Positions 17,636 to 41,056 of a stretch of DNA of 41,183 nt are shown in pieces. Origin of the DNA: a virus (taxonomy: Duplodnaviria; Caudoviricetes). Location of the stretch: the IMG/VR virus record IMGVR_UViG_3300034965_000017, positions 1 through 41,183 of that record; one strand, 5' to 3'. The position numbers were made by a program, and so were the translations under genes. The notes under the pieces are model-generated. The model was not told where the DNA came from and did not search any database. It worked only from the letters and a program-made list of their open reading frames with translations. Position 1 is the stretch's first letter, and every line of letters begins with the position of its first letter.

Positions 17636-17636
17636 C

Positions 17637-18011: not shown

Positions 18012-18012
18012 C

Positions 18013-18483: not shown

Positions 18484-18493
18484 CCCTTCGGTC

Positions 18494-18530
18494 GAGAGGC
18501 GTCACCCTGGTCCCTTGGGTGGCGCCTCTC
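18494..18530 (+). terminator. Hairpin after the tail tube gene
   Basis: gagaggcgtcaccc / gggtggcgcctctc. Confidence 0.6.
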
Positions 18531-18577
18531 TCAGTTAGTTCCAAGGGACAGCGCCAACACAAGGGACACCACACGCC

Positions 18578-19574: not shown

Positions 19575-19607
19575 ATCCGAACCATAGAGCCCTGACAGGA
19601 GACACGC

Positions 19608-22997: not shown

Positions 22998-22998
22998 C

Positions 22999-23895: not shown

Positions 23896-24995
23896 TGTAC
23901 CCAGTCACGGCCAAGTTCCTGGACGCCCTCAGAGGCCCTCACACCGCGGTTACTCGGGTGGAGATCTGGCGTGACGGCACAGGTCAGGTCATCCCCGACC
24001 TGGCTTTCAGCGGCGGCGAGGTCACCATCGACGGCACCTCCAGCGGTGTGCGCTCAACCCTGAGCCTGACCGCAGCCAAGGACGCGGGCACCGTGCTCTG
24101 GGACCTGCTCGCGCCGACCGGGACTGAGGTTATGCCCTACCGCGGCATCCGGTTCATCGACGGCACCGTCGAGCTCGTCCCCCTTGGCGTTTTTGGGATC
24201 GATTCTCAGAGGATGGGCCACGGTGTCGACGGCACGATCGACCTGACCGCACCCGACCGTTGGGCACGCGTGCAACGTGCCCGGTTCCTGCAGCCGGCCA
24301 CGACCAATGGCAACGCGATCAACGAGGCCATCAGGCTCGCAACCGCGGCCGTGCCGGTGGCCTTCAGCAAGACCGCCACGTCCGCGGCATCGACCAAGGC
24401 CCAGATCTGGGATCGCGACCGCGACGCAGCGATTGTCGAGCTGATGCAGTCAGCGGCCGCTGAGATGTTCTTCGACCGTACCGGCAAGCTTGTCGCCCGC
24501 AACGTCCCCAAGCTGACAAACCTGCCCGTGTGGACCGTCGACGCTGGCGAGAGCGGCGTCCTGGTCAGCGCAGACCGCGAACGCAACCGGTCGCGGACCT
24601 GCAACATCGTCGTGGCCTTGCCCGAGAACGTTGACGGCGCAGCGCCATTCGCACCCCAGATCGCCTACGACACCGACCCCGGCTCCCCCACGTTTGTCGG
24701 CGGCTCGTTCGGGCAGGTCCCCATGTTCTACAGCTCGCCACTGCTGACCACGGCCGCCCAGGCCTTGGCCGCGGCGAAGGCAATCCTGGGACGCGTCACC
24801 GGCCTCGCCGCCCAGGTCAGCCTTGAGTCATCGGTCAACCCAGCACTGGACGCAGGCGACGTCATCAGCGTCGTCCTTCCAGGCGGCACGGTCGAAACGC
24901 ACCTCATCGACTCAGTGACCATCCCCCTGGACGCCGGCACCCCGCAGAAGACCACGACCAGGTCGACCAGGCCCGAAGGGGATGTCCCAGAGTGA
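23895..24995 (+). CDS. Minor tail / hub protein (DUF5047-like)
   Basis: Start MYPVTAKFLDAL by TGATG coupling; VPLGVF, FGQVPMFYSSP, NPALDAGD. Confidence 0.82.
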   Translation: MYPVTAKFLDALRGPHTAVTRVEIWRDGTGQVIPDLAFSGGEVTIDGTSSGVRSTLSLTAAKDAGTVLWDLLAPTGTEVMPYRGIRFIDGTVELVPLGVFGIDSQRMGHGVDGTIDLTAPDRWARVQRARFLQPATTNGNAINEAIRLATAAVPVAFSKTATSAASTKAQIWDRDRDAAIVELMQSAAAEMFFDRTGKLVARNVPKLTNLPVWTVDAGESGVLVSADRERNRSRTCNIVVALPENVDGAAPFAPQIAYDTDPGSPTFVGGSFGQVPMFYSSPLLTTAAQALAAAKAILGRVTGLAAQVSLESSVNPALDAGDVISVVLPGGTVETHLIDSVTIPLDAGTPQKTTTRSTRPEGDVPE

Positions 24996-25288
24996 GCCCC
25001 CCACGCATCCGGTCCATGAGCTCAGCCATCCGCAAGCTCGCCGCCGAGCTGTCCGGCCGGTCAGGCCCTGGCCGGCGGCCACAGCAGTGGTTCGAGCCCG
25101 CAGTCGTGTACTCCGTGACGCCCGCAGGAGCCAGGGACGGCAACGCGCTGTGCACGGTCACCTGGCGTGGAACCCAGACTCCCGCCGCGTACTCATCCTC
25201 CTACGCCCCTGTCGTGGGCCATGTGGTCTTGCTAGGCGTCCAGCCACCCAGCGTCGTCATCCTCTGCCGCCTTATTGGCACCCCGTAA
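24992..25288 (+). CDS. Small minor tail protein
   Basis: SY.PVVG..V motif; position. Confidence 0.7.
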   Translation: MSPPRIRSMSSAIRKLAAELSGRSGPGRRPQQWFEPAVVYSVTPAGARDGNALCTVTWRGTQTPAAYSSSYAPVVGHVVLLGVQPPSVVILCRLIGTP

Positions 25289-25301
25289 CCAAGGAGTCTC
25301 T

Positions 25302-26822
25302 GTGACCAAGTTCTTTGTTTCCTGGGATGACACGACGAACAAACTTCCCGCGGTTGTCGAGGCTGCTCTTGCTGATGACTTTGTTGGGCTGGATGGTGAC
25401 CAGAACGTCAACGGGACCAAAAACTTCACCACCACCCCCTACGTCAACGGTGTAGCGGTAGCGCTGGTGTCATCACCCCCATCCATCCCCCCGGCCTGGT
25501 CTGCCAGTCAGGTCGGGCCTGGGGTGGTCGGTGAGTACTACACCTTCCAATACGTCGCCACAGGCTCACCAGCCCCGGCCTACGCAGTGACGCTGGGAAG
25601 CCTCCCACCCGGCCTGACTCTCACATCAGCAGGCCTACTCTCAGGCACCCCGTTGACGGTCGGCACCTTCACCTTCACTGTGACCGCGTCTAACGACGTT
25701 GATCCCGACATCACTAGGGAGCGCACCATCGACATCACTGCAGCCCCCGTCGCTGTTGGTGGCGGGCTCGTCTACGGCGCAGGGATGGGGTACGACGGCA
25801 AGGGCAACCAGATAATCAACGGTGGCTCCACTTCAGGTTCCGGTAGAACTGCGATCAAGTTCCGGGCCAGTACGAGTAGTGCGCTGCATGGAGTGAGGTT
25901 CACACAAAGGAGCGGGCCGGGAGGGTACTCGGGAGGCACGGGTGGGGTAATGACCATCCAAGTCCGTCCAGATGATGGCACTGGCAAGCCTCATGCGACC
26001 ACAGTGCTAGCGACGATGAGTTTCAACCCGGTTGCCTATACAGCCAGCACCGAAATCTACGACCTCAAAGTGTTCCCGACTCCGGCGAACTTGGTGGCCG
26101 GGACCATCTACCACATCGTCTTCTCCAACCCTTCCACCACGAACTTCATCTCGGTCAACAACATCTACTGCTACGAGACCGCTAACCCGCGCCACCCACG
26201 GTACGCAGACAGCGACTTTGCAATCATGGAGTCGCCGTACTCCAGCTGGTCGTGGTCCTTGGCCGACTGGTACACCCCCGTTGTCGACCTGGTGTACTCC
26301 AACGGCGTCATCGACGGGCAGTGCTACTACGAGTCGATGAACCCGCAGAGCCAGAACATCACGGGGACGAACTACCGGGTCCGAGAGAACATCTTGGTCA
26401 GCGGTGGAAACAAGATCGTCACGGGCGTCTATGTGAGGGCGCGTAGAGCCAGCGGGTCTACTCCTTTGGTTCTCACGCTTAAGGATTCGTCGGGTGCCAC
26501 CATGCAGTCGGTGAGCGTTCCTTCTACTGCCATTGCCACCACTAGCGCAGGCGGGGTAGATGCAGCGGGCGCAGTGTGGGTCGGAGGTGTCTTTGCTGCC
26601 CCGGCCACATTGATAAGCGGCAACAGGTACTACTTGGAGTTGTCCACGACGACAGGCACATACAGCACATGGCCGATCCGGGCGAAAGGCAACCCAGAAA
26701 GCTACCAGTCGTTCTGCTTCTCTGAGGGGCTATTCGAGTTCGCCACAACGGGCACGAACTGGGATCGCGGGTACTACGACCCCTACCAGGTCAACGTGCA
26801 GATGTACTTCACGCTCGCCTAG
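25302..26822 (+). CDS. Tail or receptor-binding protein with putative Ig domain
   Basis: AAGGAG RBS, GTG at 25302; GSLPPGLTL...GLLSGTP...FTFTVTA Ig-like motif; beta-rich C-terminal modules. Confidence 0.75.
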   Translation: MTKFFVSWDDTTNKLPAVVEAALADDFVGLDGDQNVNGTKNFTTTPYVNGVAVALVSSPPSIPPAWSASQVGPGVVGEYYTFQYVATGSPAPAYAVTLGSLPPGLTLTSAGLLSGTPLTVGTFTFTVTASNDVDPDITRERTIDITAAPVAVGGGLVYGAGMGYDGKGNQIINGGSTSGSGRTAIKFRASTSSALHGVRFTQRSGPGGYSGGTGGVMTIQVRPDDGTGKPHATTVLATMSFNPVAYTASTEIYDLKVFPTPANLVAGTIYHIVFSNPSTTNFISVNNIYCYETANPRHPRYADSDFAIMESPYSSWSWSLADWYTPVVDLVYSNGVIDGQCYYESMNPQSQNITGTNYRVRENILVSGGNKIVTGVYVRARRASGSTPLVLTLKDSSGATMQSVSVPSTAIATTSAGGVDAAGAVWVGGVFAAPATLISGNRYYLELSTTTGTYSTWPIRAKGNPESYQSFCFSEGLFEFATTGTNWDRGYYDPYQVNVQMYFTLA

Positions 26823-26862
26823 CCCACCCAAAAATCCCGCTGCTACCACCCCTTGGAGCGTC

Positions 26863-27522
26863 ATGCCCAACACCACGTACCTCTCTCTGCCATACCCAGG
26901 GCTGGGTGATGCACCCAACGGTCCCAGCGCTGTCCAGCAGCTGGCGGCACGCATGGAGGTACTGCAGTCGGGGATCGTTCCTGTCGCAAACCAGGCCGCG
27001 CGGGACGCACTGACGCCCATCAAGGGGTTGCGGGTGGACCGGGCCGACCTTGACCGTGTCGAACGGTACAGCGGGTCTCTCTGGCAGCCCATCAGTGGGA
27101 AGCTGCCGCACCGCTCACTGCTGCGCAACGGCACACCGACGATTGCATCTAGCACCGATGTACTACTCACCTCCGGGTGGCTCTCCGACGCGGACGACGC
27201 TGGCGACGCGTGCGGGATCACCTACTCAGGCGGGGTGCTGACGGCGGGCTTCACCGGCTGGTACTCGATCAACGCGACGTACGACTTCAGCGGGATCAAC
27301 GCCACCGGGTCCCGCCTGATCAGGGTGATGCGAAACGGGGGACAGCTTCTGGAGGGCGGCTGCGGCGGGCACATCGCGCGGGAACTGGCAAACGTGGCGC
27401 GCAGGGTCAAGCTCACCGCGGGCGACACGCTGCAGCTCCAGGTCTACCAAAGCTCAGGTGTCAGCGCCGCCATCGCCGCTGGTGACTCCTACTGGCAGGT
27501 TTCCTACCTCAACCCTGCCTGA
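26863..27522 (+). CDS. Minor tail protein with C1q-like C-terminus
   Basis: LPYP..DAP N-terminus; GWYSINA...LTAGDTLQLQVYQ. Confidence 0.72.
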   Translation: MPNTTYLSLPYPGLGDAPNGPSAVQQLAARMEVLQSGIVPVANQAARDALTPIKGLRVDRADLDRVERYSGSLWQPISGKLPHRSLLRNGTPTIASSTDVLLTSGWLSDADDAGDACGITYSGGVLTAGFTGWYSINATYDFSGINATGSRLIRVMRNGGQLLEGGCGGHIARELANVARRVKLTAGDTLQLQVYQSSGVSAAIAAGDSYWQVSYLNPA

Positions 27523-27568
27523 CCTTCCACAACCCCCTGACTGCACGCCCAACCCGTAGGAGCACCCC

Positions 27569-29131
27569 ATGTGGATGAGTCATTCGAACGTCGCCGGAGT
27601 CGTCACCGTCGCCGACAGTGCGTTCTACGGAGGATGGGACACCCTCGGCTGGGTCGTCGCCGCCGCACCTGTCGGACCGCCCGTCCCTGACGCCGGCTGG
27701 CCAGTATCCAAAGGCGAGGTCGACGGCCTGGTCGACGGCAAAATCGTGGCCGAACGGACAACCGAGCGGGCACGAGACTCTGCCACGTATGCGCTGATCG
27801 ACGGGCGCATCGTCGTGGCCGCACCGATCGGCACCGGAGGCTCCGACACGGCCCCTATCGTCGCCGCAATCGCAGCCGCGAAGGCCGCTGGAGGGCGTCA
27901 GGTCATTCAACTCCAGCGTGGTGTCTACAGCGTGAACCCCGGTGCGCTGGTGCTCGACTTCAACAACGTGACCCTGCGCGGCTTCGGCATCGGCGCAACC
28001 CAGATCAACAAGACCGGCAACGGCGACCTCATCACCATCACCTGCGCCACCGGGGACGCAGGTGTGGTGGAGCGCGCCCAGGTCACCGACATGCGCATCG
28101 ACGGCAAGGACTTCACGGGCAACCTGATCCGGTCCATGTACTCCAGCCAGTGCCACATCAAGAACGTGGAGTGCTACGCCAACAACGACGCCGCGATCAA
28201 CCTCGTCCGGGCATGGGACACCGTCCTTGACGACGTGCTCCTTGACCACTGCGGCTCCACGGACGGCACCATCTCGTCCCTGTGGATTCGCAACAGTGGC
28301 GCGGCTTCCGGCACCGGACTCTCGGCGGCTGGGCAGACCAACATGATCTACGTGCGGGCCTTGCGCGTCGAGTCGTTCCGCTCCGCGATCACCGTCGAAC
28401 GTGGCCCCGGCTCGGGCGTTGACCCCTACGGCATCTACTTCCACGGCCTCAAGTGTGAGACGTACTTCGCGCGGCTCAACACCGTCAACGTCATCAACGT
28501 CCGTGGTATCAGTTTCCGTGACGTTGACCTGTCCCTACTCGGGCTCGACAGTGGCGCGGCAGCCGTCGTCGGCTTCAACTGGGCACCGCTGTTCCGGTCC
28601 AAACTGGACGGTATCCGCATCAACTCCAACACCGGAGTCATCTACCGGGCCATCGACTCCTGGCTCCCCGGCTCGGGCTCCCATGAGATCGCCAACGTCT
28701 CATCTGAGACCAGCGCCCCCGGCGACTGCGTCATCAAGCACAACACCGCCAACCCTGCCGACATCCGAGGCTGCACCACCCAGTCAGGAACCTTGCACGG
28801 CGGCACCCCGCCCGCAGGCATTGACGGCTCGGTACGGACCAACGCCCAGGCCGCGAACTACACCCTCACCGCAGCGGACAACAACAGCGTGGTGGAGTTC
28901 ACCAAGGCCACCGCAGGCACCATCACCATCCCGCCCAACAGCGCCGTGCCGTACCAGATCGGCGCGACCATCGAGGTCCAGCAGTACGGCGCGGGACAGG
29001 TCACTCTCACCCCCGGTGCTGGGGTCACGATCCGCACGGCGTCATCCCTGACCACCCGCGCGCTCTACTCCACCGTGTCGCTTCGCAAGAGGGCCACAGA
29101 CGAGTGGGTCGCAGCAGGTGATTTGAGTTGA
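27569..29131 (+). CDS. Tail fibre/spike with pectate-lyase-like beta-helix
   Basis: GSDTAPIVAAIAAA..GG.VIQLQRGVY..NVTLRGFG; C-terminal YTLTAAD...WVAAGDL module. Confidence 0.75.
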   Translation: MWMSHSNVAGVVTVADSAFYGGWDTLGWVVAAAPVGPPVPDAGWPVSKGEVDGLVDGKIVAERTTERARDSATYALIDGRIVVAAPIGTGGSDTAPIVAAIAAAKAAGGRQVIQLQRGVYSVNPGALVLDFNNVTLRGFGIGATQINKTGNGDLITITCATGDAGVVERAQVTDMRIDGKDFTGNLIRSMYSSQCHIKNVECYANNDAAINLVRAWDTVLDDVLLDHCGSTDGTISSLWIRNSGAASGTGLSAAGQTNMIYVRALRVESFRSAITVERGPGSGVDPYGIYFHGLKCETYFARLNTVNVINVRGISFRDVDLSLLGLDSGAAAVVGFNWAPLFRSKLDGIRINSNTGVIYRAIDSWLPGSGSHEIANVSSETSAPGDCVIKHNTANPADIRGCTTQSGTLHGGTPPAGIDGSVRTNAQAANYTLTAADNNSVVEFTKATAGTITIPPNSAVPYQIGATIEVQQYGAGQVTLTPGAGVTIRTASSLTTRALYSTVSLRKRATDEWVAAGDLS

Positions 29132-29832
29132 GCAACCTCCTTCTGAGGCGTGGCGTCAACGCCAGCAAGCGTGTGGTCTCGGCGGTCGTCGTGGACTCCG
29201 CAACACTGGGCTTGGGCGCGCACTACATGAACCTGCCCTCAGGGCCGTCCTACGCGAGCACCCCGTCATCCTCAGCGATGGCCCCCGGCTCCGCGACTGT
29301 GGATCTGCGCGCCAAGATCCGCATGACCGACTGGACCCCCGCAGGCAACCAGTTCGTCCTGGCCAAGTGGAACAGCGGCCCCGACACGCAGTACGGGATG
29401 CACGTTGATTCGGCAGGCAAGGTCAACGGCACGTTCTACCGCGCCGGGGCCGTGTTCACAGGGGCCGCGTCCAGTGTCGCAACCGGGATCACGGACGCAA
29501 CCGACCGCTGGATCAGGACCGTCCTCAACCCGACTGCGGGCACCATCGACTACTACACGTCAGCCGATGCCTCGTCGTGGACCGCGCTGGGCACACAGCA
29601 GGCACCCGGCGCTGGAGCAGTCCAGACACCCGGCACCCCGCAACCCCTCACCGCAGGCTCGTTGGGCAGCGGAGGCGGCACCCTCATCGGCAGGATCTAC
29701 GCCGTACACCTACTCATCGGCGGGGCCACCGTCGCAGCAGTGGACTTCTCCACCCAGGCCGCAGCAGCCACATCGTTTGCTGGCCTGACCGCCGAGACGT
29801 GGACCATCCAAGGCTCCGCGACCATCATCTGA
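29128..29832 (+). CDS. LamG/ConA-like tail-associated protein
   Basis: Beta-sandwich pattern; TTGA-coupled. Confidence 0.6.
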   Translation: MSNLLLRRGVNASKRVVSAVVVDSATLGLGAHYMNLPSGPSYASTPSSSAMAPGSATVDLRAKIRMTDWTPAGNQFVLAKWNSGPDTQYGMHVDSAGKVNGTFYRAGAVFTGAASSVATGITDATDRWIRTVLNPTAGTIDYYTSADASSWTALGTQQAPGAGAVQTPGTPQPLTAGSLGSGGGTLIGRIYAVHLLIGGATVAAVDFSTQAAAATSFAGLTAETWTIQGSATII

Positions 29833-29880
29833 CCCCGGCCCATATGTCCCGGAAGTGCGCTAGCTGAACGACCCCTCCTT

Positions 29881-29914
29881 GAGCCCCTCCGCGTCTGCGA
29901 TGAGGGGCTCTTTT
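29881..29914 (+). terminator. Rho-independent terminator
   Basis: gagcccctc / gaggggctc followed by tttt. Confidence 0.75.
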
Positions 29915-29954
29915 ATAACCCGATCCAACCCGCGCCCCACCAAAGGAGGACGCC

Positions 29955-30584
29955 ATGACGGGAATCGAACCATCATCCATCCTTCCGGACCAGGGTCGGC
30001 CAGACCCGAGCCGTCTGAGTAGTGAGGCGATCGTGCGCGCGGTCTCCGCCGAACGCGACTACCAGAATGGACAGACCGACGTTCTGCGGGCCCGACTGAA
30101 CGGCATGGATGAAGCCACCAGGGTCCTGCACGAGACCGTGACCCGCACCCCCACCGACATCCAAAAGGCCATCACCCACCTCCAGGAGCTGCACAGCGAA
30201 CGATTCTCCTCGGTAGAGACCCAGTTCAAAGAACGCGACACCCGCGGTGAGCGGGAGGCACGCGACAACAAGCTTGCCGTCGATGCCGCATTCGCCGCCC
30301 AGGAGAAGCAAGCCGCAGCGCAGGACGTCTCCAATAAGGAAGCGATCAACAAGAGCGAGAAGTCCACCGCTGAGACGATCAAGACGAACCAGGAACTGGG
30401 TAAGGCCACCACTGACGCACTGACGAAAAGCCTCGACGAGGTCAAGCTGGCAGTCGCCCAGATCAACGCGGGGAAACAGGGCGGCAAGGACACGCTGAAC
30501 GGCATCTACGCCCTGGCAGGGTTCCTCGTTTCCCTCCTGCTCCTCGGTGGGTTCCTCGTTGCGACCGGAGCATTCAACGGTTAA
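29955..30584 (+). CDS. Coiled-coil protein with C-terminal TM (lysis region)
   Basis: AAAGGAGG RBS; heptad pattern; single C-terminal TM. Confidence 0.75.
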   Translation: MTGIEPSSILPDQGRPDPSRLSSEAIVRAVSAERDYQNGQTDVLRARLNGMDEATRVLHETVTRTPTDIQKAITHLQELHSERFSSVETQFKERDTRGEREARDNKLAVDAAFAAQEKQAAAQDVSNKEAINKSEKSTAETIKTNQELGKATTDALTKSLDEVKLAVAQINAGKQGGKDTLNGIYALAGFLVSLLLLGGFLVATGAFNG

Positions 30585-30644
30585 CCATCCGGCCCCCACT
30601 GATCCACCGCCACCTGGTCCAGAACACCGCCAGGTGGCGGTGCC

Positions 30645-30854
30645 ATGTCCATCACCGAATTCAAGGAGCAAGCCATGGGCGAGACCACGCCCGAATCATC
30701 CGCTGAGGCACTGGACGCCGGCGACCATCCCGACGAGGCACTCCAGCTGGAGCACGACGACGCAGACCTGACCGGAGACCCGATCCCCGAGGACGCCGGA
30801 CCGCTCCCCGAGCTCGAGCAGGACCAGTCCAACCCACCCGAGGAGCTCGGATGA
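30645..30854 (+). CDS. Very acidic 69-aa protein
   Basis: ATGA-coupled to the endolysin; alternative start at 30675 with AAGGAG. Confidence 0.55.
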   Translation: MSITEFKEQAMGETTPESSAEALDAGDHPDEALQLEHDDADLTGDPIPEDAGPLPELEQDQSNPPEELG

Positions 30855-31402
30855 GCTACAACACGGCGCAGGCTGCCACCGCACTGCGCAAGCTGGGCTT
30901 CCGCATCCGCACCACCGGCGAGTACCACCAAGCGGTCCGGACCTTCCAGGGCGGCTACAACCTCGGCGCATGGCTCGCGCTGGATGGTGTCTGCGGCCCG
31001 AAGACCCAGGCCGCGATCGCCCGCTGCGTAGCCAACGGCGGCAGGGCCTCGGCTCACTTCTTCTGGACCGAGTGGAAGTGCACCTGTGGCGGCCGCTTCT
31101 CCTCCTGCCGGCGAGTTCTGGTCGACAGAAATCTCCTGCGACGCCTGGAGGCATACCGAAGCGCAGTCGGGTCCGTTGCCATCGTCTCCGGCTACCGCTG
31201 TCCTGGCCGCAACCATGAAGTCGGTGGAGTCAGCGGGAGCCGCCACCTCCTGGGACAGGCAGCAGACATCCGCGGCCGGCTCAAGCTCTCCTCGATGCAG
31301 CGCTTCGGCTTCAACGGCAACGGCGTCCAAGGCTCGACTGGCCTTGTTGTCCACGTAGATGTGCGCCCCACCCGAGTGCGGCCCTGGACATACCGATGGT
31401 GA
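30851..31402 (+). CDS. Endolysin: peptidoglycan-binding domain plus M15 Zn peptidase
   Basis: AVRTFQ..LALDGVCGPKT; SGYRC..N..VGG..SRH..G.AADI..VHVDVR. Confidence 0.9.
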   Translation: MSYNTAQAATALRKLGFRIRTTGEYHQAVRTFQGGYNLGAWLALDGVCGPKTQAAIARCVANGGRASAHFFWTEWKCTCGGRFSSCRRVLVDRNLLRRLEAYRSAVGSVAIVSGYRCPGRNHEVGGVSGSRHLLGQAADIRGRLKLSSMQRFGFNGNGVQGSTGLVVHVDVRPTRVRPWTYRW

Positions 31403-31644
31403 CCCGCCCGGAACGGATCGAGACGGCATGTGAGGTCATGCACGACGCGTACGAAAAGGCCGCAGTCGGAGCCGGCTGGCAGACCCAGGAGGCCAGCCGT
31501 AAGCCCTGGTCAGGTGTCCCCGAGGCGAACAAGGTCACGATGCGCGCAGCTGTAGCCGCACTCATGGACCACCTCGAGACTGCATCAGTCTGGTCTGACC
31601 TCCAGGTCCACCCGGACGACATGCGCCAAGAAGGCCAGCCGTGA
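31396..31644 (+). CDS. Hypothetical protein, 82 aa
   Basis: HDAYE..A...GW.T...PW..VPE.NK pattern; overlaps both neighbours. Confidence 0.65.
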   Translation: MVTRPERIETACEVMHDAYEKAAVGAGWQTQEASRKPWSGVPEANKVTMRAAVAALMDHLETASVWSDLQVHPDDMRQEGQP

Positions 31645-32399
31645 CCTTCACACTGACCTACCCAGCCCTGGGCCGCGGCGCATGGCCGGCTAGCGGTCTC
31701 GGCGGCACCCTGAACGTTGCCGGCACCAGGCCCGGGAACTACTACCGGGCGCCAACCATCGCAGGTGTGAAGATGCCCGGACTGACCGGCGCCCTGGCCG
31801 TATGGCACGGAACCAGCTGCGACATTAACGACTACGCGGTGCACCGGGCCGTCCTGGGCCTACAGCCGTACTTCGGCGCCGTACCGGACGGGATCCTCGG
31901 CCCAGCTACGAGTCTGGCGATCCGCGCCTACCAGAAGGCGCACGGCCTGGCGATGGATGCCGCGATCGGTCCAGCGACCTGCCGGACACTGTTCGAGCAG
32001 ATCGCCGTTGACGCATCCGAGAGGATGGACGCCGCCCACGCCAACATGCTGTGCGGGATCGTCGTCGGCACGATCAGCATCGAGTCCGGGTTTGACCTCG
32101 GAGCGGTCGGAGTTGATACACCGCAGGATCTGGGAATCGCACAGATCAACGGGCCCGCCCATCCGAGCATGGCCGCGGCCTCCCGCCTGGACCCAGCGAT
32201 CGCAATCCCCTGGATGACGTGGTTCATCGACGGGAACCTGCGCGAGTTCCGGTACGACATCGACGCCGCGATCGCGGCATACAACCTTGGCGTCGCCGGC
32301 GCCTGGGCATGGGTCAGAGCGGGCTCACCCCAGTGGTTCCGCGGCCGAGACGTCAGAGCCTACGTAGCCAAGATCAAGAAAGCAGGACAGCCACAATGA
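31641..32399 (+). CDS. Endolysin: peptidoglycan-binding domain plus lytic transglycosylase (SLT-like)
   Basis: DGILGPAT..AIRAYQ; IESGFD, GIAQIN, AAYNLG. Confidence 0.88.
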   Translation: MTFTLTYPALGRGAWPASGLGGTLNVAGTRPGNYYRAPTIAGVKMPGLTGALAVWHGTSCDINDYAVHRAVLGLQPYFGAVPDGILGPATSLAIRAYQKAHGLAMDAAIGPATCRTLFEQIAVDASERMDAAHANMLCGIVVGTISIESGFDLGAVGVDTPQDLGIAQINGPAHPSMAAASRLDPAIAIPWMTWFIDGNLREFRYDIDAAIAAYNLGVAGAWAWVRAGSPQWFRGRDVRAYVAKIKKAGQPQ

Positions 32400-32794
32400 G
32401 TACGAAAACCATTGCCACAATGAACACCAAGACCATCTTCGGCCGAGAGCCGGCTGTGGCGATCGCACTGATCGAGTCAGGACTCGCCCTCGCGGTCCTG
32501 CTCTTCCTCCATTGGTCGAGCGAGCAGACCGCCCTGGTCATGGCCACGGTCGTCGCCAGCTTCGGCCTCTACACGGCCTGGGTGACCAAGGACACGATGC
32601 TCGGCGTGGTCGTCGGCCTGACCAAGGCAGTCATCGCCCTGGCGATCGGCTTCGGATTCCACCTCTCGCCAGATGTAACCGCGGCACTGATCGCCTTCGT
32701 CGCCGTCCTGATGGGTGCGTTCAACCGTCAGAGCACCCAGCCCTTCATCCCCTACGCGAAAGGACTGCGCGGCGTCACCACCAGCGGCGTCTAG
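32396..32794 (+). CDS. Holin (4 TM)
   Basis: IFGREPA start motif; four hydrophobic segments; follows the endolysins. Confidence 0.8.
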   Translation: MSTKTIATMNTKTIFGREPAVAIALIESGLALAVLLFLHWSSEQTALVMATVVASFGLYTAWVTKDTMLGVVVGLTKAVIALAIGFGFHLSPDVTAALIAFVAVLMGAFNRQSTQPFIPYAKGLRGVTTSGV

Positions 32795-33420: not shown

Positions 33421-34236
33421 ATGAGCCACCCCATCCCCCTGACCGATCCCCTCTCGATCGCCTGGATCGACTGGTGCCGCAACGAGCACGTCCCCCCGAA
33501 CACCATCTCCCGCCGGATCGCGACCCTTCGATCCCTCGGCAACGCCGGAACAGCGACCCGCGAGGACGTCGAAGCGTGGTGGGCCGGCCGCACCAACCTG
33601 GCCCCAGCTAGCCGTGCCAACGACCTGGCGGGCATCCGCAGCTTCCTCAAGTGGTGCCGGCGCTGGGAACATCGCAGTGACGACCCGACTCTTCGCATCG
33701 ACCCGCCGCACGTACCTGCCGGACTCCCGCACCCCATGGCCAAGCACGACCTGCAGCTCGCCCTGGACACCTTCCCCGCGGACCTGCGCCGAGCCGTATG
33801 CATGGGCGCATACGCCGGACTCCGCATCTCCGAGGCCGCAGCCCTCGACTGGGCCCAGCTCGACGTCGAGGCACGGACGCTCCGGGTCCTGCACGGCAAA
33901 GGCCACGCAGGCGGCAAGGAGAGGCTCATCGCGATCTCTCCGGTCCTGATCGACCAGCTGCTGCCCGACGTCGGAGGCAACGTCGTCTCGGCTGGCCACC
34001 AGCCCTACTCCTCGGCGTCGCTGCAGCGCCGAATCAACAGGGCGTTCGAGCGGGCAGGGATCCACGGGACCTCCCATGGGCTCCGTCACCGGTACGGGAC
34101 TATGGCCTATCAGGCGACCGGAGACCTGCTCGCGGTCGGCCGCATGATGGGCCATCAGAGCCCGGTGACCACTGCGATCTACGCCGACCCGAGCAACGAC
34201 ATCGCGGTCAAGATTGCCGCGGCTGTGGTGCGGTAG
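33421..34236 (+). CDS. Second tyrosine recombinase (short Int/XerC-like)
   Basis: GLRISEA, HGKG, HGLRHRYGT, MMGH, TAIY. Confidence 0.92.
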   Translation: MSHPIPLTDPLSIAWIDWCRNEHVPPNTISRRIATLRSLGNAGTATREDVEAWWAGRTNLAPASRANDLAGIRSFLKWCRRWEHRSDDPTLRIDPPHVPAGLPHPMAKHDLQLALDTFPADLRRAVCMGAYAGLRISEAAALDWAQLDVEARTLRVLHGKGHAGGKERLIAISPVLIDQLLPDVGGNVVSAGHQPYSSASLQRRINRAFERAGIHGTSHGLRHRYGTMAYQATGDLLAVGRMMGHQSPVTTAIYADPSNDIAVKIAAAVVR

Positions 34237-34268: not shown

Positions 34269-34303
34269 AAGCCCGCCACCCTGGCCTCAGGGCGGCGGGC
34301 TTT
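34269..34303 (+). terminator. Rho-independent terminator after recombinase 2
   Basis: aagcccgccaccctg / cagggcggcgggctt followed by t. Confidence 0.75.
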
Positions 34304-34345: not shown

Positions 34346-34547
34346 GGAGACCGGCTGACCCGGCGCGACACGCCGCCCAACAGCCATGCCTACCAAGACC
34401 TTGACAGACTCGGTACGCTCGGCGGTGTTCTCGGAGGCGCCTTTCCTCCGGAGGTTGGCGTCGAGCAGCACAAAGGCTTTTCACTGATCATTGCTTGGCT
34501 TGGTGGGTGTGCGGTGGTGGTGTCGCAGGCCGGGTCAGCCGGTCTCC
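34346..34547. repeat. 19-bp perfect inverted repeats (34346-34364 and 34529-34547) around a 164-bp spacer
   Basis: GGAGACCGGCTGACCCGGC and its reverse complement; extends by GCGACAC with a 2-nt indel. Confidence 0.9.
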
Positions 34548-36070
34548 CCGAAGTCCCCGTAGTTGGTGTCGAGGTCGGCCTCGAGCTCGGCGAGGGTGGC
34601 CCGGTCTGCGGCAGGGTTGGCAGGACGTCGTGGCCGAGGGCGAGGCGCTGGCCTGGTCGGCGAACCGAAGTCCACTTGCTGCGGAGACGGGAAGCGGGAG
34701 GCGACGGCTCGGATCAGGTCGTCGGGCCAGTAGTTCGCGCGGACTCTGTCGGTTGAGCCGTCGTCGGCCACGACGTACGCGGTGCCCTGCGCGTCCGGCG
34801 AGATCAGATGCACAGGGACCGACGTCGCCTCGGGCAGGACCAGCCGGCCCTCAGCTTTGGATCGCATCCGCAACACGACGGTCTGGGTGAACAGGCCGCG
34901 GTTGCTGATGATCTCCTTACGTGGGTCCTGGACACACGCCACGACGCACACACCCACAGCCCGGCCCTTGGTGAGCAGGCGGGCCATCAGTGCCTCTGCG
35001 AGCTTCTTCGTGGCAGCATCGGCGTAGGCCATCAGGTCGGCGTACTCGTCGATCATCAGGACGTGCAGCGGCTCCGCCTTGGTAGCGACGTGAGAGCGGG
35101 ACACTCCGGCCATACGCTCGGCTCGCTCATCGGTCATGGTGGCCAGCCGGCCCAGCAGGGTCAGGGCGTCGACGTGGTTGGTGGCGATCGAGCAGAACAG
35201 GCCCCGCCCCATGCCGACCTCGATGCCGCCCTTGAGGTCGACGGCCCACAGCTGCACCAGGCCGCTCGGTACGGACGGTGCTAGGCCTCCTGCGATGCCC
35301 CAGAACATCGAGCCCTTCCCGGAGCCGCTGCACCCAGCGACGAGGGTCTGCTTGCCGACGATCGCCAGCGTCCAAGGACTCGAGTCCTCACGACGACCCA
35401 GAGTGACCTCACCAACAGTCCGGGGCCTGGTCGCCGAGGGCATGGTGGCGTCACGTGCCCTGGTCAGGTGGTCGACCATCAGGATCTGCAGCACCAGGAT
35501 GCCTGGGTCGCCGCGCACGATCCGGTAGGAGAGCCCACCAGCTGCAGCGCAGATCGCATCAGCAGCGCCGGCCAGGTGCTCGAACGTCTGGCCGAGCCGG
35601 ATGCCGATGGTCATGGTCAGCGTGGAGCCCTTGAACGTCACGGCCTTCAGCTGAGGGCGGGTGACGACGATCTCCTTCTTGATGACCCACTTGCCCTTGT
35701 CGTTACGGACCTTCCGGGTGATGGAGCGGGTCCCAGTCAGGTTGCACTCCTCGGACAGGCGTGGCCAGGCATTCTTGGCCCACTTCACGTGGTGGTTGCT
35801 CTCGCGGGGTGCGGCGACATGGCGGCGCCACCGGTTCGGGAAGCGCCTGGACACGAACGCCACAAGCAGCGCCGGGGCGACACCGGCAGCCAGGAGCTCG
35901 AAGCCCAGGAGGTTGTGCTGGGTGTAGAGCGCCGCGACGACGGCCGCGACCCAGAGGATGACCCACCGGGGGTGCTTCCGGGCCACCCGCCAGGCGTCCC
36001 CGCCCAGGGCGCTGGGGGTCATGCCCAGCGGCCAGCCCCTGCCGTTACCAGCGGCTGCCATCGCCGCCAT
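34535..36070 (-). CDS. FtsK/SpoIIIE-family DNA translocase or coupling protein (TcpA/TraB-like)
   Basis: ATG at 36070 after GGAGGG; two N-terminal TMs; GCSGSGKGS, VDLKGGIE, LMIDEYADL, GRAVG..VQDPR. Confidence 0.88.
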   Translation of the reverse strand: MAAMAAAGNGRGWPLGMTPSALGGDAWRVARKHPRWVILWVAAVVAALYTQHNLLGFELLAAGVAPALLVAFVSRRFPNRWRRHVAAPRESNHHVKWAKNAWPRLSEECNLTGTRSITRKVRNDKGKWVIKKEIVVTRPQLKAVTFKGSTLTMTIGIRLGQTFEHLAGAADAICAAAGGLSYRIVRGDPGILVLQILMVDHLTRARDATMPSATRPRTVGEVTLGRREDSSPWTLAIVGKQTLVAGCSGSGKGSMFWGIAGGLAPSVPSGLVQLWAVDLKGGIEVGMGRGLFCSIATNHVDALTLLGRLATMTDERAERMAGVSRSHVATKAEPLHVLMIDEYADLMAYADAATKKLAEALMARLLTKGRAVGVCVVACVQDPRKEIISNRGLFTQTVVLRMRSKAEGRLVLPEATSVPVHLISPDAQGTAYVVADDGSTDRVRANYWPDDLIRAVASRFPSPQQVDFGSPTRPAPRPRPRRPANPAADRATLAELEADLDTNYGDFGETG

Positions 36071-36087
36071 GGGACCCTCCTGGACGT

Positions 36088-37821
36088 TCACAGGCCGACC
36101 TTCTGCCCGCCGCGGTTCACGACCGTCTTGGTGTCCGGGTCCCAGACCCACTTCTCGGACTCCGCAGTGAGATCGACCGGCTGCCGTTCCCGCCGGGGCG
36201 GGTCGTACAGCGGCGTTCCAACCGCCCGTGCCGACTGCTTGGGTTCGTCCATGGCTGGCTCCTGTTCTGGTCTGCCGAAGGCCTCGGCGGGTTGCTTGGT
36301 GTTCGGGTCCGGCTTGTCTTCCTTGGGCTTGTCCTCGTCTGTTACGGCTTCGACCACGGCCGCGCCGGCCGCTCCTGCCAGGACGTTCGGGACGTACTTG
36401 GTAGCGAGCTTCCTCATCTTCCGCACACCGGGCCCTCTGCCGCCTGACGACATGCCGACGATGTTCGTCAGGCTCAACAGCGGCCACAGCAGGACGAACG
36501 CGACCACAGTCGCCACCCCGCACAGGACCAGCACAAGGGCATTCATCCCGCCCAGGCGGGCATTGACCAGCAGCGCCGAGACAATCGTCGTGTGGATCGT
36601 GGCCCCCACACTGAACGCGATGACGTTCACCACCGACGCGCCGGCGATATTCGCAACCCTGTGCACGATCGAGCTCATGGGCGCAATGACACCAAGGACT
36701 GCGACCGCTGGAAAGATCATCACCAGCAGGCGCAGCATGATCAGGCCGGCGAACATGAACAGGTCCGCGATGACCCTGAACCCGGCCGTGAACAGGGCCC
36801 CGAATAGGGTCATCACGCCGACCCCGGCCCGCTCCCCCGTCTTGCCCTGCAGTATCAGGTAGGCGTTGGGGTCCTGTAGCTGGATCTGCTCTGCGGCCAA
36901 CTTCCACGCGGCGGCCTTCCCATCGGCGAGGCGTTTGGCCACGGCAGGGTCCGCGCGGGCTTGGGCGGCGGTGTCCCAGCTGTAGACGGAGGCCTTGAAC
37001 AGGACCGGGCCCCACTTCTTGGCTGTGGGGCTGTCCGTGGTCCCGAACTGTCCGCGTAGCCACGCGTCGTACAGGACCCGGTCCACGAGCAGCGCGCCTT
37101 GGGCCTTGGCGGGGTCTGAGGTGGTGGGGAGGTTGGCGATGCCTGCGGCGCCGGCGTTGACGGTGGAGATGACCCCCGTGACTGTGGAGTCGAATGCGCT
37201 GGACGCGCGGGCGGGGTAGGCGGCGAGCCCGGACATGATGGCGATGATCAGGACGGCCCAGGCGGCGCCTTTGGCGACTGCGCTCATCCGCCCGGACATC
37301 GACAGCCAGAGCAGGGACCCGGCGACGGCGAGGAGGGCCACGGCGCCCCAGGGGTTCCAGATCGTGGTTTTGACCTGGCCGGAGACCTTCGCCACGACTG
37401 TGTTCAGTGGGGCCATGTAGGTGCCTGGGTTGGCGAGGCGGTTGTGAAGTCCGTTGGCGGCGGCGATGGTGTTGGTGGCGATGCTCAGTGCCCAGTTGCC
37501 GATCATGGTGTCCGTGGCGGCGGACACGTCACGCAGGTCCCCGCCGCAGCCGAGGTCGTAGGTGTGCCAGGTCAGGCCTGCGTACCCGGACTGCTCGTAG
37601 ACGGATGTGGTGGGGTGGGTGGTGAACGGGTCGCCGGGGGCGGGTAGTGGGTTGGGTCGGCCGTCGAGGAACCCGGGCAGGCCTTCGCCAGGGAGTTGGG
37701 CGGCGGGCGCGGACTTGCAGTCGAGCCCGCCGGGGATCACGTCGACGGCCTGTGCCGACCCGGCCGTGACCACCACGAGCCCGAGAATGAGTAGCACGCT
37801 ACTGAGTAGGCGGCGCATCAT
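36088..37821 (-). CDS. Polytopic conjugation membrane protein (TcpH/ConG/VirB6-like)
   Basis: Signal peptide, several TMs, W..GQFG extracellular segment, charged tail; directly downstream of VirB4. Confidence 0.72.
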   Translation of the reverse strand: MMRRLLSSVLLILGLVVVTAGSAQAVDVIPGGLDCKSAPAAQLPGEGLPGFLDGRPNPLPAPGDPFTTHPTTSVYEQSGYAGLTWHTYDLGCGGDLRDVSAATDTMIGNWALSIATNTIAAANGLHNRLANPGTYMAPLNTVVAKVSGQVKTTIWNPWGAVALLAVAGSLLWLSMSGRMSAVAKGAAWAVLIIAIMSGLAAYPARASSAFDSTVTGVISTVNAGAAGIANLPTTSDPAKAQGALLVDRVLYDAWLRGQFGTTDSPTAKKWGPVLFKASVYSWDTAAQARADPAVAKRLADGKAAAWKLAAEQIQLQDPNAYLILQGKTGERAGVGVMTLFGALFTAGFRVIADLFMFAGLIMLRLLVMIFPAVAVLGVIAPMSSIVHRVANIAGASVVNVIAFSVGATIHTTIVSALLVNARLGGMNALVLVLCGVATVVAFVLLWPLLSLTNIVGMSSGGRGPGVRKMRKLATKYVPNVLAGAAGAAVVEAVTDEDKPKEDKPDPNTKQPAEAFGRPEQEPAMDEPKQSARAVGTPLYDPPRRERQPVDLTAESEKWVWDPDTKTVVNRGGQKVGL

Positions 37822-40325
37822 GCGACCTCGACACTGTGCAGGCGCGCCAACCTGTTCCGCGCCTTGTCCGGGTCCGCCGTCGTGGACAGGGCTTCGAGGA
37901 GGTGGGGGTGGGCGGCCATGTCCATGCGGATCCGCTCGATCGACGCGCCGTCCGAGAAGACGAACTCCCTCGCGCCCCGCTTCCCCTTGCTCGTGGGGCG
38001 GGACAAGGTCCCGAAGATCCCCTCGTATCCGACGCCTTCAGCGACCCCGGGCAGGAGCTGGAGCGCGTCGTGTTGGGCCTGCTCGTCGGTGAGCCTTCCA
38101 ATGAACGCCGCTGAAACGAGGTTGGCCAGGTCGAGCCTGAGCAGGTCACTCGGGTTCTGGGAGGCCAGGAGCACGCGGGTGTTGTGCTTGCGGCTGTCCC
38201 GGGATGCCCGGTCGATGAAGCGGCGTCCCGCGGAGAACGTGCCTAGCGCCCACGCCTCGTCCAGAAAGATCCCCTTCCGGGCGTGCACATCCCCGGCATA
38301 CATCCCTCTTTGCGCCAACCATGCTGCGAGGAACAGCACGGCCATGCTCAGTCGCTCGTCCAGGTCATCCGTGCCACCCGACGCATCATCGGGCAGCGCG
38401 AGTCCGCGGAGGCTGTACACCGTCAGGAGGGGCGCGGCTTGGGCCTTGTCGAGGTAGTACCCGGACGGGAAGATCAGCCGCCCGTGGCTCGTCTTCGCCG
38501 CCTCGAGGTAGAAATCCCGCATGTACCCCGCATGCCTGACCAAGTCGGGGTCCCCGCCGAGGTCTCTGAGGGCGTCTAGGACGTAGTTGGGTGCGGAGGT
38601 GCTCGTGGCGTGGACCTGCCCCACAGCCCGCAGGAGGGCGACCTCGGTCAGGACGTGGTCCTGCATCTGTTTGGGGAGCATCGACCTCAGGACCGACGTG
38701 GTGAGCATGCGGCGCGTCTCATAGGCGCGCTCAACCGCGGCAGCCCATTCGGCTTTGGTGTCGTAGTGCTCTACCGCCGGCTCGGCGATCACCCGGTAGG
38801 TGTTCAGCACACCCTCGGGCGCCTCGAGGAGGTCGACCGCCTGGGAGTGGTCGGCGAGCTCGGGCAGGCGGCACAGCGCGGTCAGGCGGCCGGAGGGGTC
38901 GAGGACAGTCCACGGGACACCCTGCATCAGCGACCGGTAGATGACGTTCCCGCCCGCCGTACTCTTCCCCCCGCCCAGGCCTGCGACGACGACACCAAGG
39001 CCGGACTCTTCCTTGCGCTCCGTGGCTTCCCACGGCTCCCACGTCACAACCCTCTGGCTGGTCCCGCTGGTCTCCCCCAGGTGGATGCCTCTACGGTCAC
39101 CGACCTTCGCCGTTGCCGCCGGCACAGCTGCGGACAGGGTGGTGACGGGCATCCGGCGCCGGTACGCCGTCGACCCCAACGGCTCACCGGGGATGAACTC
39201 CCGGCCCACCGCCAGCTGGTCCGCTGGCCTGCAGATACTGATGCCGGGCTGGTACAGCTTGCGGACCTCATTGGCCCGCTCGAGCGCCTCCTCCTGCGTC
39301 GCGCCGGACACGGACACGCGGAAGTAGCCAGTCGTGCGGGTGGACAGCCCTGACAGGCCTGTGGCCAGGTCGTCCTCGACTGCGAGGGCGCGGGACGCCT
39401 GCCGGTCCAGGGCGCCCGGTGCGGGTTCGCGGTGCTCCTGCTCGTAGTGCTCCTTCTGGGAGCGGACCTTCTGGATGGCGTGCCGCATGGCGCTGCCCAC
39501 CTTGGCTGCATCCTCGACATCGACCCGCGCAGACCACTCGACAGGAAAGCCGAGAGCGTCGGTGCGCTGCATCCATGGCGTACCTGAGGGGATGTCCATG
39601 TCGCCCATCCGGCCCACGCTCATGACGCAGACGTGCCGTTCCACCATCTCCCCGTTGGCTTCACCGGTTACCAGGATCGTGCGCCCGTACGGGCGGGTGT
39701 GCCACTGGACGGTGTCGGTGAACTCGGCCAGGTCCTCGGTGTCCCACTGCTCGGCGTCTGCGTTGCCGAGCGTCAACGGCGCCGGCAAACCCAACCCGGT
39801 AGACCGGTGCAGCAACCACTCAAGCTGCCGCGGGGTTGCCGGGATGGCATCCATGCCGGGCGCGGCCATGATCTCGCTCGTCTCACGGATCGCTTTGCCC
39901 AGCCCTGCGACTTCACGGTCACTGAGCGCCCCGGCCAGGGCGCCAGCGATCCGGTAGAGGCCTTTGCGGGCGGGGATCTCCACGCCCAGGTAGACCTCTT
40001 TGTCACTCATGTTGCGGCCGGCGAGGTGCTCCTGGTCCCGCATCAGGTAGTCGCGCCACCCGGGCAGCGGCGCGGGCGCGTTGCCGTCGTGCGCGGAAGC
40101 CCACTCGCTCACGGGGTAGGGGCGGGTCGTGACCCGGATGTGGACGTTTCTCCTGACGAGCTGGGCGTAGCAGTCGGCGCCGTCACGGATCAGCTGCTCG
40201 CGCACACCGTCCGGGCGGAAGCTCCAGCCTTGGGGTTCGAGGAGGTACCAGGCGTGGATCCGGTCAGCGGTGACAGTGCAGTGCCCGCTGATACTGCGCA
40301 GCGCGAGGCCGGTCTTCCTGGTCAT
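37818..40325 (-). CDS. virB4: VirB4-like conjugation ATPase (TcpF/ConE type)
   Basis: 835 aa from ATG 40325 (ATGA-coupled); GLGGGKST, VLDPSG, IFLDEAW, RDSRKHN..LLASQ. Confidence 0.88.
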   Translation of the reverse strand: MTRKTGLALRSISGHCTVTADRIHAWYLLEPQGWSFRPDGVREQLIRDGADCYAQLVRRNVHIRVTTRPYPVSEWASAHDGNAPAPLPGWRDYLMRDQEHLAGRNMSDKEVYLGVEIPARKGLYRIAGALAGALSDREVAGLGKAIRETSEIMAAPGMDAIPATPRQLEWLLHRSTGLGLPAPLTLGNADAEQWDTEDLAEFTDTVQWHTRPYGRTILVTGEANGEMVERHVCVMSVGRMGDMDIPSGTPWMQRTDALGFPVEWSARVDVEDAAKVGSAMRHAIQKVRSQKEHYEQEHREPAPGALDRQASRALAVEDDLATGLSGLSTRTTGYFRVSVSGATQEEALERANEVRKLYQPGISICRPADQLAVGREFIPGEPLGSTAYRRRMPVTTLSAAVPAATAKVGDRRGIHLGETSGTSQRVVTWEPWEATERKEESGLGVVVAGLGGGKSTAGGNVIYRSLMQGVPWTVLDPSGRLTALCRLPELADHSQAVDLLEAPEGVLNTYRVIAEPAVEHYDTKAEWAAAVERAYETRRMLTTSVLRSMLPKQMQDHVLTEVALLRAVGQVHATSTSAPNYVLDALRDLGGDPDLVRHAGYMRDFYLEAAKTSHGRLIFPSGYYLDKAQAAPLLTVYSLRGLALPDDASGGTDDLDERLSMAVLFLAAWLAQRGMYAGDVHARKGIFLDEAWALGTFSAGRRFIDRASRDSRKHNTRVLLASQNPSDLLRLDLANLVSAAFIGRLTDEQAQHDALQLLPGVAEGVGYEGIFGTLSRPTSKGKRGAREFVFSDGASIERIRMDMAAHPHLLEALSTTADPDKARNRLARLHSVEVA

Positions 40326-40669
40326 CGGGGTCTCCTTGGCGGGCGGAACGTTTGCACGGACGGCTTGGCATGGCCACGCCCAGCGGTGACCTGGTGGGTG
40401 AACGCGGTGACAACGCTCCGTAGGGGTCGGTCGTGGTCCACAACCGACCCGATGACCTGCGTCAGCGCGGCAGTCACGAGGAGCGTCCACACCAGCGGCC
40501 AGAACCCCGCCCCGATACCCAGGCGCAGCTCGATGACCTCGAGGAGGGCGAACAGGCCCGCGCCCACGGCGTAGTCGACGTACCGGGCGCGCCACGGCAG
40601 AGTCACCCCGGGCGGGCCCAGCCAGACGCCGTCGACCTGGTAGATGGAGTCGTCCACAGGCAGCCTCAT
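40322..40669 (-). CDS. TcpE/VirB3-like 2-TM protein
   Basis: 115 aa, 2 TMs, directly upstream of VirB4; ATGA-coupled. Confidence 0.68.
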   Translation of the reverse strand: MRLPVDDSIYQVDGVWLGPPGVTLPWRARYVDYAVGAGLFALLEVIELRLGIGAGFWPLVWTLLVTAALTQVIGSVVDHDRPLRSVVTAFTHQVTAGRGHAKPSVQTFRPPRRPR

Positions 40670-40914
40670 GAGATACCGACGAGGTGGATTAGGGACCGCC
40701 CCAGGGCCGGGGCTGCGGTGGGCACGGCTGCGATACCCAGGATCAGGCAGGCGAGGACTGCGCCGGCGACGACTTTCATGGCCTGTTTGTTGTTGCCGCT
40801 CCTGGCCATCATGAACAGGGAGCAAGCCAGGATGAGCAGGAGCAGTGGGATGACGTTGCCTTTGATCCAGGTCTGGAGGTTGGCGGTGCCGACTGCGGTG
40901 GCGAGAGCGTGCAT
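40666..40914 (-). CDS. Small 2-TM pilin/TcpD(ConC)-like protein
   Basis: 82 aa; GAAAGGAA RBS; two TMs separated by a basic loop. Confidence 0.65.
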   Translation of the reverse strand: MHALATAVGTANLQTWIKGNVIPLLLLILACSLFMMARSGNNKQAMKVVAGAVLACLILGIAAVPTAAPALGRSLIHLVGIS

Positions 40915-40925
40915 GACGGTTCCTT

Positions 40926-41056
40926 TCAGGGTTGGGTTTCGGGCCAAGACACATGGACGTGAGTGACGTGGTTGGCGTTTGGGTCTCCGCGGTCCTCCAT
41001 CAACCGCCACCCCTCATCGGCGCGGGCGACGTTCCAGATGTGCTGCCGGTAGATGA
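40926..41056 (-). CDS. Same hydrolase, C-terminal part (His-rich metallopeptidase-like, NHVTHVHVS)
   Basis: In frame with 1-832 across the circular join. Confidence 0.8.

Follow-up and report, generated by a model that had tools for sequence, protein, structure and literature searches.

A conjugation-like gene cassette without a recognisable relaxase in the variable slot of a temperate siphophage: a possible capsid-free route for phage DNA

Can a temperate tailed phage carry, next to its virion genes, a machinery that would move its DNA directly from one cell to another? The question is raised by IMG/VR record IMGVR_UViG_3300034965_000017, a stretch of 41,183 nucleotides (nt; referred to below as the window) whose 127-nt terminal repeat closes it into a circle of 41,056 bp, and which IMG/VR classes as having direct terminal repeats and as 100% complete. 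An earlier note on this DNA had described it as a complete temperate siphophage carrying an intact, relaxase-less conjugation operon. The phage part of that description holds: one circle carries the genes for terminase, portal, scaffold, capsid, tail tube, tape measure, two lysins, a holin, an integrase and a repressor, and by this gene content the element is a temperate siphophage with a full set of virion and lysis genes. On balance, we favour the view that the adjoining cassette of six genes pumps double-stranded phage DNA into a touching cell, which would give the phage a second, capsid-free route of spread.

The cassette consists of six open, co-oriented open reading frames (ORFs) on the minus strand, in the layout given below, in which G001 is a second phage and AICE stands for actinomycete integrative and conjugative element (ICE).

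868..902, minus strand: hairpin upstream of the hydrolase gene, conserved in G001 (alignment score 74.5, which none of 300 shuffles reached)
1..832, minus strand: cell-wall hydrolase, 5' part (phrog_10030, E 5.5e-47; family profile, E 3.6e-73)
40926..41056, minus strand: cell-wall hydrolase, 3' part past the circle origin (phrog_16241, E 2.7e-11)
40666..40914, minus strand: pilin-like (VirB2/TcpD-like) protein, 82 residues, two predicted membrane helices (family profile, E 5e-22)
40322..40669, minus strand: TcpE/PrgI-like (VirB3-like) membrane protein, 115 residues (family profile, E 6e-48)
37818..40325, minus strand: VirB4-family ATPase, 835 residues (AAA_10, E 3e-19; TcpF, E 7e-21; VirB4 structure 4ag5)
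36088..37821, minus strand: VirB6/TcpH-like polytopic membrane protein, 577 residues, six predicted hydrophobic segments (CD3337/EF1877 family, E 2.4e-6)
34535..36070, minus strand: FtsK-family DNA translocase of the pMR2 AICE Tra type, 511 residues, true start at 36070, with N-terminal helices and motor
34346..34547, no strand: inverted repeat whose two perfect 19-nt arms are 34346-34364 and 34529-34547; it covers the final 13 nt of ftsK

The ORFs, their coordinates and the absence of frame breaks bear out the claim of six co-oriented open genes on the phage circle. The statement that most of them are joined by ATGA overlaps applies to three of the five junctions; at the other two, the genes stand 11 and 17 nt apart, with ribosome-binding sites. 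The word "intact" is justified for the reading frames taken singly, whereas the gene set lacks a VirB8-like gene. The identity of VirB4 is well supported: both its Walker A and Walker B motifs are intact, and 334 of the 349 positions that are invariant in 20 homologues are kept. Support for the VirB6-like assignment, from the CD3337/EF1877 match, is moderate; to the profile of its own family the protein scores E 1e-235. The names pilin-like and TcpE-like are tentative and follow from weak matches together with gene position; the link of the former to TcpD/TrbC is weak (hhalign E 0.002; Atlas 0.86), and the latter falls, at 0.90-0.92, to Atlas clusters with TcpE or PrgI on 14-15% of their members. 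The hydrolase, read from 832 through the origin to 40926, has 320 residues, with one predicted N-terminal membrane helix, a transglycosylase-like domain and a C-terminal domain that resembles domains of phage lysins or tape measures, where a cellular homologue has NlpC/P60.

The slot in which the cassette lies is best understood from the closest backbone relatives, two phages recovered by a search with a homologue of the recombinase gene intA (G002, 41,362 nt, and G003, 42,630 nt). Many of their tail genes are 53-84% identical to those of this phage (tape measure 77% over 604 residues, lysin 80%), and neither of them contains a VirB4. Between intA and the leftward integrase gene, on the same strand, they carry a different FtsK-family protein, of the TraB type. 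The TraB of G003 shares 51% identity with the FtsK of a Streptomyces plasmid and 32% with that of the S. venezuelae plasmid NC_007431, which we take to be pSVH1, and the TraB of G002 is 45% identical to that of G003. Directly 3' of TraB there are nine copies of a 7-mer in G003 and seven in G002, arrays that resemble the described clt arrays (PMC3583192). In G002 the slot further contains a lysozyme-like gene and genes for membrane proteins; the assignment of one of these proteins, of 311 residues, to SpdB2/DUF2637 proved unsupported. The corresponding regions are:

34269..34302, no strand: terminator-like hairpin between intA and the cassette, at the left edge of the slot (G002 homology runs to 34285)
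L067:10816-13074: TraB region of G003
L068:136-4602: TraB region of G002

The slot measures 8.1 kb in this phage, and 6.1 and 4.7 kb in the two relatives. DNA that aligns with G002 (33367-34285, 934-999 and 1283-2160) reaches both edges of the cassette, which therefore replaces exactly the variable slot. Together with G001, four phages carry two unrelated kinds of predicted DNA-pump cassette, all behind lysis genes, and because of this recurrence DNA transfer as the selected function gains its strongest indirect argument. The presence of a TraB cassette in the same slot of the sister phages likewise lends support to transfer of double-stranded DNA by an FtsK pump. With their TraB pump and 7-mer array, G002 and G003 are themselves candidate conjugative phages.

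G001 (IMGVR_UViG_3300044899_000013), a linear siphophage record that is 82% complete, provides the test of recurrence in other phages that the earlier note had called for, since it carries the same cassette on an unrelated backbone. Its structural genes are nearly unrelated to those of this phage (portal 34% identical, capsid of a different family), and long DNA similarity between the two (65-75%) spans the cassette alone: the hairpin at 868..902 is the start of the common cassette, and shared DNA begins at about 906. In G001 the cassette has the same gene order and lies behind holin and lysin genes, on the strand opposite to the late genes; its operon keeps an extra 185-residue gene and has four small ORFs inserted, one of which is 71% identical to a gene of the G002 slot. 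The VirB4 proteins of the two phages are 81% identical and fall in one clade (100% SH-aLRT in a quick tree of 63 rows), which also holds P0003, P0243 and P0037 and is nested among homologues that include those of Oryzihumus, Intrasporangium and Knoellia. The ratio of nonsynonymous to synonymous substitution (dN/dS), obtained by a simple counting method and covering the whole path between both phages, is 0.19 for VirB4, 0.35 for FtsK, 0.55 for the hydrolase, and 0.29 and 0.39 for the other two genes, at dS 0.9-1.2, the pilin-like gene being saturated; with all frames open, these values of 0.19-0.55 for five genes count, for that path as a whole, against the relaxed selection that the same note had named as a refutation. 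Scans of IMG/VR with VirB4, the VirB6-like protein and FtsK, one of them over 36 of 64 parts, found the cassette in G001 only. The loci L052 and L003 proved to be unrelated ATPases. Among 50,697 GenBank phages nothing matched this VirB4, this FtsK or the G003 TraB, and a GTDB scan gave just one weak, unrelated match. A fusion of HNH nuclease and helicase (L004:12061-14109) converges on the cassette in G001 and is a possible defence gene.

The pump itself belongs, as judged from profile scores, to the pMR2-type AICE Tra proteins and is not a TcpA: it is 35% identical to the Tra of pMR2 (profile E 4.6e-75), against E 1.4e-6 for TcpA and E of at least 0.001 for the FtsK proteins of linear plasmids, both of which are ruled out as its identity. 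The choice between TcpA and TraB put forward in the earlier note is thereby superseded. The AICE Tra clades, including that of pMR2 from Micromonospora rosaria, have been described (PMC3218068); the Tra of pMR2 and the TraB of SLP2 fell out of our motor tree, so that placement here means profile scores. The predicted structure (pLDDT 88.9) has as its top fold match an FtsK motor on double-stranded DNA (E 1.7e-18), and the TcpA fold also matches. The FtsK proteins of this phage and G001 are sisters in a FastTree phylogeny (100%), and further kin are found in pMR2 and adjoining integrase and excisionase-like genes. Small elements in IMG/VR (L058:4992-8435, L059:1-3537, L061 and L062) combine a conserved upstream gene, a pMR2-type FtsK, a helix-turn-helix (HTH) gene and an integrase; they adjoin prophages or satellites, and no Rep is evident in their gene calls.

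The inverted repeat over the stop codon of ftsK is the longest of its kind in the genome, the runner-up having 14 nt and the maxima in 20 Markov copies 12-14 nt. It is a candidate clt-like transfer-recognition site or invertible segment; the clt of pWTY27 likewise overlaps the tra stop (PMC3583192). Another motif downstream of FtsK that is common to the window and G001 is marginal, its score being reached by 1 and 6 of 300 shuffles. It should also be noted that intA points at the segment bounded by the 19-nt repeats, and that this segment may act as an inversion switch. The relatives also have a conserved intA, and in them DNA homology stops ahead of the repeat.

How such a cassette might be expressed is suggested by the integration and immunity region:

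33421..34236, plus strand: intA, short tyrosine recombinase, 87% identical in the two relatives without VirB4 (G002 and G003)
1285..2154, minus strand: intB, short tyrosine integrase with an ssrA-like tail, 90% identical in G002
2602..2955, minus strand: likely immunity repressor, ending in an ssrA-like tail; a tightly coupled run of genes leads leftward from it to 937
2678..2719, plus strand: attP core, within the repressor gene; it matches the 3' half of tRNA-Lys(CTT)

By its conservation in two relatives that lack VirB4, intA is a backbone gene; as it also has no TcpM match, we rejected it as a TcpM-like relaxase or an ICE integrase. The likely prophage integrase is intB, by criteria taken from PMC9262239. 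The attP core is identical to that of G002 at 42 of 42 nt, though the rest of the G002 repressor does not align, and the circle is, to judge by its single intact attP, the free form. From the repressor to 937, genes overlap or sit at most 2 nt apart, and a 104-nt gap that bears the hairpin then leads to the hydrolase gene; repressor and intB are co-oriented, and both end in the ssrA-like tail.

On the reading that we favour, the free circle, with attP intact in the repressor gene, could make a transcript from the repressor promoter that reaches the cassette by way of intB and the small ORFs. Once the phage has integrated at tRNA-Lys, this promoter would be parted from intB and the cassette, so expression may be gated by excision; alternatively, the hairpin may terminate the transcript, or the cassette may own a promoter. 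The wall would be breached by the hydrolase, and VirB4 would build the contact and the channel together with the pilin-like, TcpE-like and VirB6-like proteins. Unnicked DNA would be driven across by the pMR2-type Tra, for which the inverted repeat over its stop codon is a conceivable loading site. In the recipient, intB would integrate the circle. It is plausible, though we advance it with more reserve than the transfer function itself, that these phages represent an integrating tailed-phage family in which conjugation is a standard exchangeable part, the slot taking either a TraB-clt cassette or a hybrid of a VirB4 channel and an AICE pump, activated by excision across attP.

Several observations weigh against transfer by this cassette. 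The hairpin at 868-902 could block read-through, and no promoter of the sigma-70 type was found, nor any tRNA or any Rfam match above the gathering score. In integration-dependent immunity, the free circle yields an unstable repressor (PMC9262239), so that transfer would compete with lysis. The FtsK model lacks the C-terminal winged helix and ends in a disordered linker and one helix, pMR2-type homologues likewise ending in low-complexity tails; in a tree of the motor only, the FtsK proteins of the two phages do not pair; and the 3' end of ftsK, where the inverted repeat overlaps the stop, has no direct-repeat array in the window like those of G002 and G003. The pairing of the VirB4 operon with a pMR2-type Tra was seen in two phages only, and in none of 41 metagenome loci (as returned, with several near-duplicates and one weak unrelated match), so that the combination occurs in no system that has been tested. 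A related cluster on the chromosome, cmdA-F, has a role in sporulation and not in plasmid transfer (PMC2782261). Finally, the VirB8-like gene that relatives keep is absent.

This last point leads to the missing partners. None of 206 ORFs (61 main and 145 further) matches a Pfam relaxase family at E<=0.01, and neither recombinase matches TcpM (E 0.16), in agreement with the relaxase-less operon first described. That a TcpC/ConB (VirB8-like) protein is not recognisable here was also correct: neither gene nor remnant is found in six frames of the window (best E 0.1). The family that fills this place in relatives, F3, folds like TraM of pIP501 (Z 11.1, rmsd 2.8, 98 aligned positions) and TcpC (Z 9.6), with Z 9.6-9.7 for other NTF2 folds. 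F3 is kept in all 25 cellular loci that cover both neighbours, in four of four plasmids and in G001; L044, a short locus, has neither it nor the VirB6-like gene. On this distribution, the absence of F3 here is a loss specific to this copy. The 206 ORFs also contain no Pfam match to RepSA, RepAM or Prim-Pol, no DUF2637 gene and no rolling-circle Rep. As the cassette is accompanied by neither an ICE integrase nor a rolling-circle Rep, the label "phage-ICE hybrid" was overstated: conjugation genes as phage cargo stand, the ICE part does not, and by gene content the element is a phage with a captured cassette.

The loss of the VirB8-like gene gives weight to the explanation that the cassette moved DNA in an ancestor, and maybe still does in G001, and that the present copy is a recently disabled passenger. 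The departure of its FtsK from the family at 10 of 76 invariant positions points in the same direction, and the dN/dS values, which reflect the whole path between two phages, are not a measure of recent selection. We nevertheless consider this explanation unlikely: the six frames are open with both Walker motifs intact, the junction between the VirB6-like gene and ftsK is clean with a ribosome-binding site of its own, and the slot costs 8.1 kb of a 41-kb genome. Moreover, the three genes essential in pELF2 are VirB4-, VirD4/FtsK- and VirB6-like (PMC13492992).

A different function is the next explanation to be weighed. By sequence, the five-gene core is closest to operons of actinomycete linear plasmids and Intrasporangiaceae chromosomes. 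In the metagenome loci the operon has the order pilin-like, TcpE-like, VirB4, VirB6-like, F3, hydrolase, and lies among restriction, transposase, metabolic and island genes; 122 neighbours from 21 cellular loci (flanks of 0.2-9.3 kb at the 15 loci measured) include no phage structural, relaxase or FtsK family. The six-gene VirB4 operon in actinobacterial metagenome contigs (L006-L045) often stands beside type I restriction-modification genes. Such surroundings, the non-transfer role of cmdA-F, and a hydrolase C-terminal domain that in both phages differs from the cellular NlpC/P60 would fit a repurposed machine, which carries phage DNA from one daughter cell or compartment of a colony to another, changes the envelope or secretes protein, and does not serve mating with unrelated cells. 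We regard this as doubtful, since the slot of the sister phages holds TraB with repeat arrays, a hallmark of double-stranded DNA conjugation in actinomycetes (PMC3583192), the kin of this FtsK occur in pMR2 and beside integrase and excisionase-like genes, and there is no evident gene for a secreted cargo. That the contig is chimeric, or that an ICE lies in tandem with or nested in a prophage, is most improbable, because the cassette exactly fills the variable slot between flanks that align with G002, the independent phage G001 has the cassette as well, with small ORFs set into the operon, and the single attP is intact, both recombinases are backbone genes and neither Rep nor relaxase comes with the cassette, even though phage-ICE tandems are common (PMC13651849) and the GC content of five cassette genes (0.68-0.70) slightly exceeds that of most backbone genes (0.62-0.67).

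The remainder of the genome can be described briefly:

10012..32794, plus strand: virion and lysis block with terminases, portal, scaffold, capsid, connectors, tail tube, tape measure, minor tails, lysins and holin
3720..4508, plus strand: likely replication initiator, from its position and three internal 22-nt repeats at 4094-4162

The large terminase subunit (TerL) is 72% identical to that of Arthrobacter phage Pitbull, and the likely host is an actinobacterium of the Micrococcales, close to Intrasporangiaceae. The likely initiator has no family match, its role being suggested by position and by the repeats, which are direct and look like origin iterons. Near-identical DNA of about 29 nt occurs at the start of several early ORFs (5616-7531, four copies); similar N-termini are also present in G003, and these sites are possible recombination joints for gene shuffling. 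A LuxR-type HTH regulator gene lies immediately 3' of the holin gene (32801-33286), where G002 and G003 have other genes. The phage ORFs contain no ParA/ParB match, and an integrase and attP are present, so the phage does not fall under phage-plasmids as defined by partition and maintenance genes.

If transfer by the cassette is real, the virus would have two ways of spreading, by particle and by mating; it could bypass surface receptors and reach hosts beyond the range of its tail, leaving the donor alive. A relaxase-less cassette of VirB4 and FtsK would then be a compact test of whether a type IV-like channel can carry double-stranded DNA, a question that linear plasmids pose as well, and the TraB type, the VirB4 type with VirB8 and the VirB4 type without it would form a natural series for comparison.

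Among known systems, the operons of actinomycete linear plasmids are the closest. Plasmid homologues (pRVR2, NZ_AP018367.1; NZ_CP050694.1; pSM17C, NZ_CP029341.1; pVAPN1572, NZ_KX443401.1) share the pilin-like, TcpE-like, VirB4 (32-44% identical), VirB6-like and hydrolase genes and have an FtsK-like ATPase nearby, and the three Streptomyces linear plasmids among them, typed as non-mobilizable and without relaxase, combine the five-gene core with a different FtsK-like or coupling ATPase. In contrast to these, the present operon lies in an integrating circular phage, begins with the hydrolase gene, misses the VirB8-like gene and has an FtsK of another family; pVAPN1572 additionally has a MOBF relaxase, whereas none was found by Pfam in this phage. 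Transfer has been reported for relaxase-less sets of a VirB4-like ATPase, FtsK and membrane proteins in SLP2 and pELF2 (PMC2782261, PMC13492992); genes SLP2.19-23 are a functional analogue, the SLP2 ATPase being only distantly related to this VirB4 (E 1.5e-5). The kinship with Gram-positive mating-pair systems stated in the earlier note stands for VirB4, which is TcpF-like, but the closest kin are the actinomycete plasmids and chromosomes and not Tn916, ICEBs1 or pCW3: with the MPF-FA systems of Firmicutes (pCW3 Tcp, Tn916, ICEBs1) this phage shares distant TcpF homology (profile E 7e-43) and weak TcpD, TcpE and TcpH matches, and it differs from them in having no relaxase match, no TcpC/ConB, and an FtsK nearer to the Tra of pMR2. 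With AICEs of the pMR2 clade (PMC3218068) it has in common an FtsK-type Tra, a tyrosine integrase and a tRNA attachment site; unlike them it has no RepSA, RepAM or DUF2637 match, its pump is by arrangement co-transcribed with a VirB4 operon, and it carries virion genes.

Prophage DNA is moved by a conjugation or conjugation-like route in phage-ICE tandems (PMC13651849) and in the conjugative prophage Phi1207.3, for which no mechanism is named (PMC4260502). The tandems are two adjacent elements and, according to their authors, not hybrids, whereas here the machinery, known from its genes, lies within one phage. In titles and abstracts, with few subscription journals covered, we found no integrating tailed phage with a VirB4 operon of its own or with a transfer slot of exchangeable content; such phages could be among the supplementary data of PMC13651849 (612 tandems) and PMC13492992. 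The phages with integration-dependent immunity (BPs and mycobacteriophage clusters G, N and P; PMC9262239) have the same arrangement of an attP from a tRNA 3' end in the repressor gene, a short integrase and ssrA-like tails on repressor and integrase (here the tails are recognised by sequence), and this phage departs from them by the co-directional transfer cassette downstream and the second short recombinase. The plasmid-phage pZL12 of Streptomyces is not among the best 30 of 121 VirB4 matches. It resembles this phage in uniting particle genes and an FtsK-type tra on one replicon (PMC4487206, PMC3583192); pZL12 is a larger ParAB plasmid that needs tra and two further genes for transfer, whereas the phage described here is an integrating element of 41 kb with a VirB4 operon.

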